Source: Eledone cirrhosa
Taxonomy: Eukaryota
Reading direction: 5' to 3'
DNA: 64,000 bases
Assembly: GCA_964016885.1 (NCBI GenBank)
Contig: OZ024745.1
Span: 20,212,001-20,276,000 of the forward strand
Shown: one piece after another, positions 13,401 to 16,400 of the stretch
Position numbering within the stretch: the stretch's first letter is position 1
Layout: each line of letters starts with the position of its first letter
Notes under the pieces: generated by a model
What the model saw: only the letters and a program-made list of their open reading frames with translations
What the model was told of the DNA's origin: nothing
The model's database searches: none
Made by a program: the position numbers and the translations under genes

Positions 13401-16400
13401 TGTAGTAAGTTATAACATAAACAAGAGATGATCCTGGATGGAGAGATAAACTCTGAGTGAAAGAAGAGAATTTGTCTTACCGGACCGAAGTAGTGCTGTA
13501 TTGTAAAACAGTTGTTGTTGATGTTTTTATTGAAGTAATTGTCGTTGTTAAAGTTGTTTTGGTTGTTTAAAAGTTGTTTGGAAAACATCGAACTGATCTT
13601 CAGAAGTAAATTGTAGTCGGTTGTTCCACCATTTTTAGTTTCTTCATCAATTATATCAAACACCATCATTGCTTCCTGAAAAATAAACAGTATGTGTGTG
13701 TATATGTGTGTATGTGTTATATGTGTATGTGTGTGTATATGTGTTTGTGCGTGTTTATGTATGTGCGTGCGTGTGTGTATGGTAAACTGAAATACAAATC
13801 TATACCTAAAGGTTTCATGCATAAAGACTCGTTTGGCTGGAGGTATCCATCAGTGGGTTAATGAGTACCTCAGTACAGAGGACCAACAAAGAGACGTTGT
13901 AGGAAACCTTTAGAGATGGGTTTTCATCCTCTTTACTCTTATATTCATACTTGACATACTACACGTCTCTCTTCTAAGACAAGAGGGATTTCTCTACTTT
14001 TAGGTTTTCTAGGCACGACAATATAAACTATACACAGAATCATAGGTGCAGCGTTGTGACCTACGGCATTTCCTGACCAATGTAAACATGACAGTGTACG
14101 GCATTTCCTGACCAATGTAAACATGACAGTGTACGGCATTTCCTGACCAATGTAAACATGACAGTGTACGGCATTTCCTGACCAATGTAAACATGACAGT
14201 GTACGGCATTTCCTGACCAATGTAAACATGACAGAGTCCGGCATTTCCTGACCAATGTAAACATGACAGTGTACGGCATTTCCTGACCAATGTAAACATG
14301 ACAGTGTACGGCATTTCCTGACCAATGTAAACATGACAGTGTACGGCATTTCCTGACCAATGTAAACATGACAGTGTACGGCATTTCCTGACCAATGTAA
14401 ACATGACAGTGTACGGCATTTCCTGACCAATGTAAACATGACAGTGTACGGCATTTCCTGACCAATGTAAACATGACAGTGTACGGCATTTCCTGACCAA
14501 TGTAAACATGACAGAGTCCGGCATTTCCTGACCAATGTAAACATGACAGTGTACGGCATTTCCTGACCAATGTAAACATGACAGTGTACGGCATTTCCTG
14601 ACCAATGTAAACATGACAGTGTACGGCATTTCCTGACCAATGTAAACATGACAGTGTACGGCATTTCCTGACCAATGTAAACATGACAGTGTACGGCATT
14701 TCCTAACCAATGTAAACATGACAGAGTCCGGCATTTCCTGACCAATGTAAACATGACAGTGTACGGCATTTCCTGACCAATGTAAACATGACAGTGTACG
14801 GCATTTCCTGACCAATGTAAACATGACAGTGTACGGCATTTCCTGACCAATGTAAACATGACAGTGTACGGCATTTCCTGACCAATGTAAACATGACAGT
14901 GTACGGCATTTCCTGACCAATGTAAACATGACAGTGTACGGCATTTCCTGACCAATGTAAACATGACAGAGTTCGGCATTTCCTGACCAATGTAAACATG
15001 ACAGTGTACGGCATTTCCTGACCAATGTAAACATGACAGAGTCCGGCATTTCCTGACCAATGTAAACATGACAGAGTCCGGCATTTCCTGACCAATGTAA
15101 ACATGACAGTGTACGGCATTTCCTGACCAATGTAAACATGACAGTGTACGGCATTTCCTGACCAATGTAAACATGACAGAGTACGGCATTTCCTGACCAA
15201 TGTAAACATGACAGAGTACGGCATTTCCTGACCAATGTAAACATGACAGTGTACGGCATTTCCTGACCAATGTAAACATGACAGTGTACGGCATTTCCTG
15301 ACCAATGTAAACATGACAGAGTACGGCATTTCCTGACCAATGTAAACATGACAGAGTACGGCATTTCCTGACCAATGTAAACATGACAGTGTACGGCATT
15401 TCCTGACCAATGTAAACATGACAGAGTACGGCATTTCCTGACCAATGTAAACATGACAGTGTACGGCATTTCCTGACCAATGTAAACATGACAGTGTACG
15501 GCATTTCCTGACCAATGTAAACATGACAGTGTACGGCATTTCCTGACCAATGTAAACATGACAGTTTCCACTCCTCCTCGGGCTTTAACACAGCTGATGT
15601 CTTCCAGAGAAAGAAAGACAAAGAATCGACCCCAGTCCAGTCGCAACTGAGTTGGTACTTTATTTATCGACCTAGAAAGGATAAAAGACTAAGTTGACCG
15701 AGGTGGGATTTGAACTTAGAGTACAATGAACCAGGACAAATACTGCCAAGCATTCTATTCAACCTACTAACTACTCTGTCAATTCGCTACCTCTAGCGCC
15801 CATTTTTCTGTACAATTAAAAACTCACCTTATACAAGAGTTCTACTTCTGACCTATTTTCTGTATAACTAAAACCTCATCTTGTATAAAAGGTCTACCTG
15901 TGACCTATGCCCTGTATAATTAAAACCCACCTTATAGAAAAAATTTGTATAATTAAAACTTCACCTTATACAGAGAATCTATCTCTGACCTATTTTCTGT
16001 ATAATTTATACTCACCTTATACAAGAGATTTGTATAATTAAAAGCTCACCTTGTACAAGAGGTCTACCTCTGATCTATTTTGTTCATCAAGGTTAGTGTC
16101 TCGTAAAATACCTTCATTTCTAAAATCTTCTAATTCTTTCAGGGCAGCATTTTCAATAAAGAACTGTTGAATTCTTTCGTTGTTTATATTGATACACAGT
16201 TGTTCAAAAGAGTTCATAGATGTCTCCATATGTCCTGTTAAGTCGACCACAGATATAGTAGAAGACCTGTAGAGTTAAACAGTAGAAATGCATTAGCGTA
16301 GTCAAACTGTCTAGGTGCAAAACCAATGTTAATTAGTTACCGAAGGGGATCTTTGATTTTTGCTTCTTCTTTTTTAATTACAGACAGTGTACGAATTGAG

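Follow-up and report, generated by a model that had tools for sequence, protein, structure and literature searches.

Myosin heads fused to chitin synthases constitute the class-36 myosins, and disrupted switches have already been described among myosins in the same source (PMC5583752). Myosin-chitin synthases occur across the lophotrochozoans, with secondary loss of the head in groups B and C (PMC3942024). One myosin-chitin synthase is described as radula-specific in a snail (PMC5995198), and the head of Atrina ArCS1 is treated, in the relevant part of the preprint, by modelling rather than by motor assays (bioRxiv 10.64898/2026.08.31.748318). The fungal class V chitin synthase Mcs1, which also carries a myosin head (myosin-17), reaches the membrane with the help of kinesin-1 and myosin-5 (PMC3252574). 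In myosin generally, the Arg of switch I forms a salt bridge with the Glu of switch II (R238-E459 in Dictyostelium numbering; PMC7986744), and when this Glu is mutated, hydrolysis falls sharply, both basal and actin-activated, while nucleotide binding is not blocked (PMC3122231).

Here we analysed a predicted gene of the octopod Eledone cirrhosa, the head of which is encoded in the window (the whole 64,000-nucleotide stretch under study). This gene is a class-36 myosin-chitin synthase, with an N-terminal myosin head in one frame with a chitin synthase. As in Atrina ArCS1 and Lottia LOTGIDRAFT_127517, the head precedes a type II chitin synthase that has transmembrane segments and the full set of core motifs. 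Compared with these members, however, the GFE of switch II is replaced (it is kept in 34/35 other aligned members), 11 residues are missing from the likely cardiomyopathy loop and far more of the invariant head residues are changed. The head resembles Drosophila myosin-18 and Limulus myosin-3 (PMC3122231) in its likely non-motor fold, those two being without ATPase, and myosin-18 also in the replacement of the Glu (there by Gln); they belong to another class with another tail and bind actin but not ATP, and the present gene is not a member, since here the core of the P-loop is kept and it is the actin surface that looks damaged. With fungal Mcs1 it shares a synthase-borne head and, presumably, the lack of directed motility (PMC3252574), but Mcs1 arose by an independent fusion (PMC3942024), its actin binding is ATP-dependent and its ATPase is needed (PMC3252574). 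The closest parallel in decay is the annelid protein DgyrCDS9805 of Dimorphilus gyrociliatus (P0080), in which GFE is also lost together with 27 of 101 near-invariant head residues. This protein lies outside the clade on a long and unsure branch, has lost the P-loop Thr and has a diverged synthase (20/185), and its degenerate head is likely an independent case. In the mainly open-access literature that was covered, we found no account of a mollusc myosin-chitin synthase that had lost its switch II motif. Dead myosins, disrupted switches and head loss in myosin-chitin synthases are already known, and the gene is thus a modest variant of the mollusc family.

The genomic model comprises 29 exons, all with GT-AG ends, and encodes 2,242 amino acids in an open frame with a single stop at its end (Table 1). 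Exons 12 and 17 of this predicted model were picked by phase and splice-site strength. The earlier note had described 14 exons with good splice sites and an open frame; the GT-AG ends and the frame hold within the window, but the gene continues beyond it, as 15 further exons encoding the chitin synthase were found in the 200 kb examined before the window start. In the synthase part, the motifs DGD, QQFEY, CAPGCF, GEDRW, QRRRW and WGTRE are in place (residues 1497-1825), a PF03142 match lies at C5:20192078-20192194, and transmembrane segments are present, as judged from the alignment to orthologues. The P-loop exon has a single match in the 3.0 Gb genome. A free-standing myosin III, XVI or XVIII was considered and rejected, given that a chitin synthase makes up the tail and that class-36 homologues have a matching start. 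The earlier note had also taken the open frame as a sign that this is not a pseudogene. The frame is indeed open, but this is hardly informative on the head itself, since any stop or frameshift in it would cost the intact downstream enzyme as well.

Table 1. Features of the predicted gene and of the remainder of the window (window positions unless stated otherwise).
Feature	Position	Strand	Remarks
Exon 1	29127..29273	minus	predicted start codon 29273; homologues start at the same place
Exon 2	25107..25172	minus	purine-binding Asn-Pro kept
Exon 3	22734..23070	minus	P-loop, LEAFGGAKT, switch I; Pfam Myosin_head E 2e-24; P-loop GDSGSGKT 22956-22933, Glu just after it changed to Gln; Asn to Gly in LEAFGGAKT at 22821; switch I Arg166 at 22788, conserved Asn to Ser
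Exon 4	21413..21560	minus	LEKSR strand; near-invariant residues kept 11/11
Exon 5	19772..19895	minus	
Exon 6	19228..19330	minus	
Exon 7	18299..18370	minus	ends within first half of likely cardiomyopathy loop
Exon 8	16928..17048	minus	model 11 residues short at exon 7/8 junction
Exon 9	16050..16266	minus	switch II and relay helix; Pfam Myosin_head E 1e-12
Switch II DLTGHME, model residues 381-387	16224..16244	minus	His and Met at the Phe and Glu positions; His385 CAT 16232-16230, Met386 ATG 16229-16227, Glu387 GAG 16226-16224
Exon 10	13481..13675	minus	helix-loop-helix region, Asn-rich insert; hydrophobic tip changed to Asn-Gly
Exon 11	7696..7817	minus	
Exon 12	6415..6475 (61 nt)	minus	short loop 2; selected for its strong splice sites and for linking phase 2 to phase 0
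Exon 13	2458..2513	minus	
Exon 14	1255..1404	minus	SH2-SH1 region; Trp and Asn in place of two conserved Arg
Intron 14	1..1254, on past window start	minus	
Exons 15-29	contig position 20211183 down to 20184619 (G000:C5)	minus	converter, transmembrane segments, chitin synthase core, stop
Decayed tandem copies of exon 9 3' end and donor	15804-16081		just inside intron 9
Tandem array in intron 9	14062-15565		35-bp unit repeated 43 times, 98% matches
Phospholipase A2-like exons	42482-42252, 41339-41178, 36000-35830	minus	secreted type; PF00068, E 4e-7, 9e-5, 1e-4, each below curated cut-off
Three overlapping open frames	40600-39050	minus	no Pfam match
GC-rich stretch	56683-58058	minus	broken reverse transcriptase frames

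Some further features of the window were noted. In intron 9, the tandem copies of the exon 9 end are probably unused, as a stop follows the first donor, and the 43-copy array leaves two minus-strand frames open for more than 550 codons. Elsewhere, the last of the phospholipase A2-like exons is present in two copies approximately 5.3 kb apart with differing C-terminal ends, possibly representing alternative ends or a partial duplication. The three overlapping frames lie between these two last exons, and we take them to be a Penelope-type retroelement from their look (reverse transcriptase and GIY-YIG). The broken frames in the GC-rich stretch are presumably LINE-like.

The earlier note had read switch II as DLTGHM, with Phe replaced by His and Glu by Met at unchanged spacing and a Glu one residue later, and this reading is borne out by the alignments and the codons. 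The switch II exon aligned without gaps to the DIAGFE of the squid and scallop myosin II structures, and among 36 other aligned heads (35 myosin-chitin synthases and one myosin IX, several of them close kin) the register at switch II was gap-free or nearly so in 35. The canonical DIxGFE with its salt-bridge Glu is absent. The other quoted motifs were likewise found on the minus strand, with GDSGSGKT starting at 22956, LEAFGGAKT at 22836 and NSSSSRFGK at 22803. The P-loop fits the GESGxGKT pattern, and a stretch of 12 residues is shared with two heads that have a canonical switch II. Of the switch I signature NxNSSRFGK, the Ser-Ser-Arg is kept, but Ser stands here in place of the second Asn, which every one of the 34 other rows covering it has. 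Contigs from all three short-read runs, which represent one sample and possibly the source of the assembly, span 15900-16585 with one to three differences, those listed (15940, 15975 and 16419) all being intronic, and exon 8 with its acceptor was matched without differences over 16700-17062. An assembly or gene-model artefact behind the switch II motif or the short loop is very improbable: the splice model is purely predicted, exon 8 adjoins a (TA)n repeat and the confirming runs may share the assembly's source, but these contigs match exons 8 and 9 with no listed coding difference, none of 27 micro-exon candidates in intron 7 fits and the P-loop exon is unique in the genome.

Next to this, we placed the gene among its relatives. 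In a quick tree of the synthase region, built from 63 rows hand-picked from protein search matches, it groups with chiton, gastropod and bivalve sequences in a mollusc clade of 20 rows (SH-aLRT 99), including Leptochiton, Lottia 127517 (LOTGIDRAFT_127517), Elysia, Plakobranchus, Mytilus and other bivalves and gastropods. On this tree the gene is orthologous to the Lottia 127517, Mytilus and chiton proteins. GFE is kept in all five full-headed orthologues and in 35 of the 36 other aligned heads, the exception being Dimorphilus. Three other head loci in the genome adjoin same-strand chitin synthase matches, carry DISGFE, DMSGFE and DMSGFE at switch II and are likely paralogous fusions. Because orthologues and likely paralogues keep GFE, the switch II change is, on this comparison, derived in this lineage. 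Orthologues with a canonical DIxGFE, which the earlier note had named as evidence against its claim, thus exist outside the cephalopods (5/5), and make the change derived rather than false. One paralogous exon is nearly identical to Octopus proteins, and one paralogous octopod head (L065, C11 at approximately 46.622 Mb; Argonauta P0184) has GLSGSGKT in place of GESG in its P-loop together with a canonical switch II.

Searches for a cephalopod orthologue, which were weak in that synthase fragments of 312-993 amino acids at 90% clustering fell outside them, returned none. The P-loop exon against proteins of 196-2000 amino acids gave one match among 546 candidates, a fish myosin IX; the last synthase exon gave nothing above 51% identity in the best 150 of 1,662 matches among 50% representatives, and only Octopus and Argonauta paralogues in the best 120 of 466 among proteins of 994-2835 amino acids; the switch II exon gave no candidate among proteins of 39-126 amino acids. 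Little or nothing of the head is present in 13 of the 18 orthologue models from gastropods and bivalves, and some of these headless models start with decayed converter remnants. They may in part be annotation truncations: the Mytilus edulis model is headless, M. galloprovincialis has a head and a near-identical synthase, and the former looks like a truncated annotation. The scallop and clam models P0164, P0165, P0166, P0167 and P0168 begin at a converter remnant, decayed in the clams, and these remnants suggest real head loss in the two lineages.

The change in switch II is, judged from the alignments, one symptom of a wider decay of the head. By the same method, 26 of 112 near-invariant columns were changed in the head and 2 of 185 in the synthase. 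When all 36 other heads served as the reference, 24 of 101 columns were changed here and 0-5 in 34/35 other myosin-chitin synthases; the reference rows define the near-invariant columns and hence score low themselves, but this bias cannot explain the contrast between head and synthase because the synthase control shows only 2/185. Identity to five orthologues was 35% for the head, compared with 45% among the orthologues themselves, and 72% in both comparisons for the synthase core. The changes are scattered over the P-loop, switch I, helix O, switch II and SH1, including active-site neighbours (Glu118Gln, Asn155Gly and Asn163Ser) and two conserved Arg of the SH1 region, while the P-loop Lys-Thr, the switch I Ser-Ser-Arg, Asp381, Gly384 and nine of ten near-invariant relay residues are kept. 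In a 14-row tree, in which the head branch joined another long branch, the ratio of head to synthase branch length was 1.35/0.23 (approximately 6), compared with 0.89/0.13 for Mytilus and 0.56/0.093 for Lottia 111741; the overall rate of the head, so estimated, is not exceptional beside these two proteins with canonical heads.

To evaluate selection on the head, we used a simple neutral simulation with uniform change, tuned to the observed number of changes over 109 gap-free columns (three gap-adjacent columns were dropped; some columns may be misaligned). Changes requiring at least two bases numbered 7 of 23, compared with 1.5 expected under neutrality (P about 0.001), and 5 of 21, compared with 1.2 expected, without the two switch II sites (P about 0.01). 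The head changes were also more conservative than neutral (P 0.01-0.03), an effect not significant at a 95% column threshold (P 0.14). This pattern is unlike uniform neutral decay, and the fold of the head is probably still under selection. From this one sequence, and not from dN/dS, we infer that a few sites were released long ago and that most of the fold is still held.

Cardiomyopathy loop, helix-loop-helix and loop 2 are described as conserved actin contacts of myosin (PMC8698748). At the exon 7/8 junction, 15 residues are present here and 26 in 31 of the 36 other heads; the remaining five have 25, 17, 17, 16 and 0, the last four likely being incomplete models. When the Lottia orthologue is aligned with myosin X and XV and the general myosin fold is considered, the 11-residue gap likely falls at the cardiomyopathy loop and the start of the next helix. 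Among 27 phase-compatible micro-exon candidates in intron 7, none was 33 nt long or resembled the missing residues. Loop 2 has 21 residues, a net charge of +1 and one basic residue, where most heads have 5-18, and filtering introns 11 and 12 by splice site left no extra loop 2 exon. The Mytilus loop 2 is equally short (21 residues) and that of Octopus sinensis shorter, both in heads with a canonical switch II. At the tip of the helix-loop-helix, the hydrophobic pair is lost. Taken as they stand, these loop sequences likely argue against strong actin binding.

In conjunction, these results bear on what the head may still do. The earlier note had proposed a nucleotide-binding, hydrolysis-impaired head. 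The impairment is likely, in view of the far lower hydrolysis of Glu mutants (PMC3122231), and the predicted head has very probably lost ATP hydrolysis. As a whole, we give an even chance to the reading that the head is a folded non-motor domain on an intact synthase, with neither hydrolysis nor a strong grip on actin. ATP may still bind through the P-loop Lys-Thr, the switch I Ser-Ser-Arg and the Asp and Gly of switch II. Without the Glu, the Arg-Glu bridge could not form in its usual geometry, and neither hydrolysis nor a power stroke would be expected. With one loop shortened and loop 2 nearly neutral, the head would bind actin less strongly, and the synthase would be brought to the membrane by other motors and make chitin there. 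The fold would be kept by selection because it lies in one chain with a needed enzyme, and it may serve as a docking surface. The gene would then stand part-way along the loss of the head that earlier work has described for myosin-chitin synthases.

Among the alternatives, a selected, hydrolysis-dead actin tether, anchoring the synthase or its vesicles to cortical actin or to microvilli, is possible though unlikely. The myosin-17 of fungal Mcs1 is a vesicle tether that binds actin only transiently and is not motile in vitro (PMC3252574). Drosophila myosin-18, which has Gln in place of the switch II Glu, tethers actin without ATPase (PMC3122231), and the present head, which keeps 86 of 112 near-invariant residues, is probably under residual constraint. 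Each of the three conserved actin contacts (PMC8698748) looks altered, however, and the ATPase activity of Mcs1 is required for secretion (PMC3252574). The actin tether of the earlier note is therefore weakened by the 11-residue loss at the likely cardiomyopathy loop and by a 21-residue loop 2 with one basic residue.

Slightly less probable is that the head is a neutral vestige, its frame open only through the downstream synthase, or that the transcript starts internally and skips most of the head. The spread of the changes through the motor, the many orthologue models that start at the converter, some with decayed remnants, and an open frame that is expected anyway in a fusion are consistent with a vestige. 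The excess of multi-base changes at few sites, with most invariant sites untouched, and the conservative bias point the other way, as do the 14 head exons, every one of which keeps GT-AG ends and consistent phases that an internal start would let decay.

We hold as equally doubtful a stronger form of the preferred reading, in which octopods keep by selection an ATP-binding, hydrolysis-dead and actin-free head that serves its own synthase as a nucleotide-sensing domain for regulation or docking; if true, a pseudo-motor would have been repurposed inside a glycosyltransferase.

A slow motor, in which a local insertion and deletion have moved the register so that Glu387 can reach Arg166, appears slightly more doubtful again. 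A Glu does stand at +1, Arg166, Asp381, Gly384 and nine of the ten near-invariant relay residues are kept, and a codon gain before the Glu with a codon loss after it would give an identical alignment. Against this, the Phe is also lost, the spacing to the relay is unchanged, other near-invariant neighbours in the active site are replaced and in none of the 36 aligned heads does a Glu at +1 replace the canonical one.

The role of the motor head in mollusc chitin synthases has so far been assumed from sequence. An intact synthase with a likely dead head, beside canonical paralogues and orthologues, offers a ready comparison for asking whether motor activity matters for chitin secretion, and the gene may show a half-way stage of head loss.
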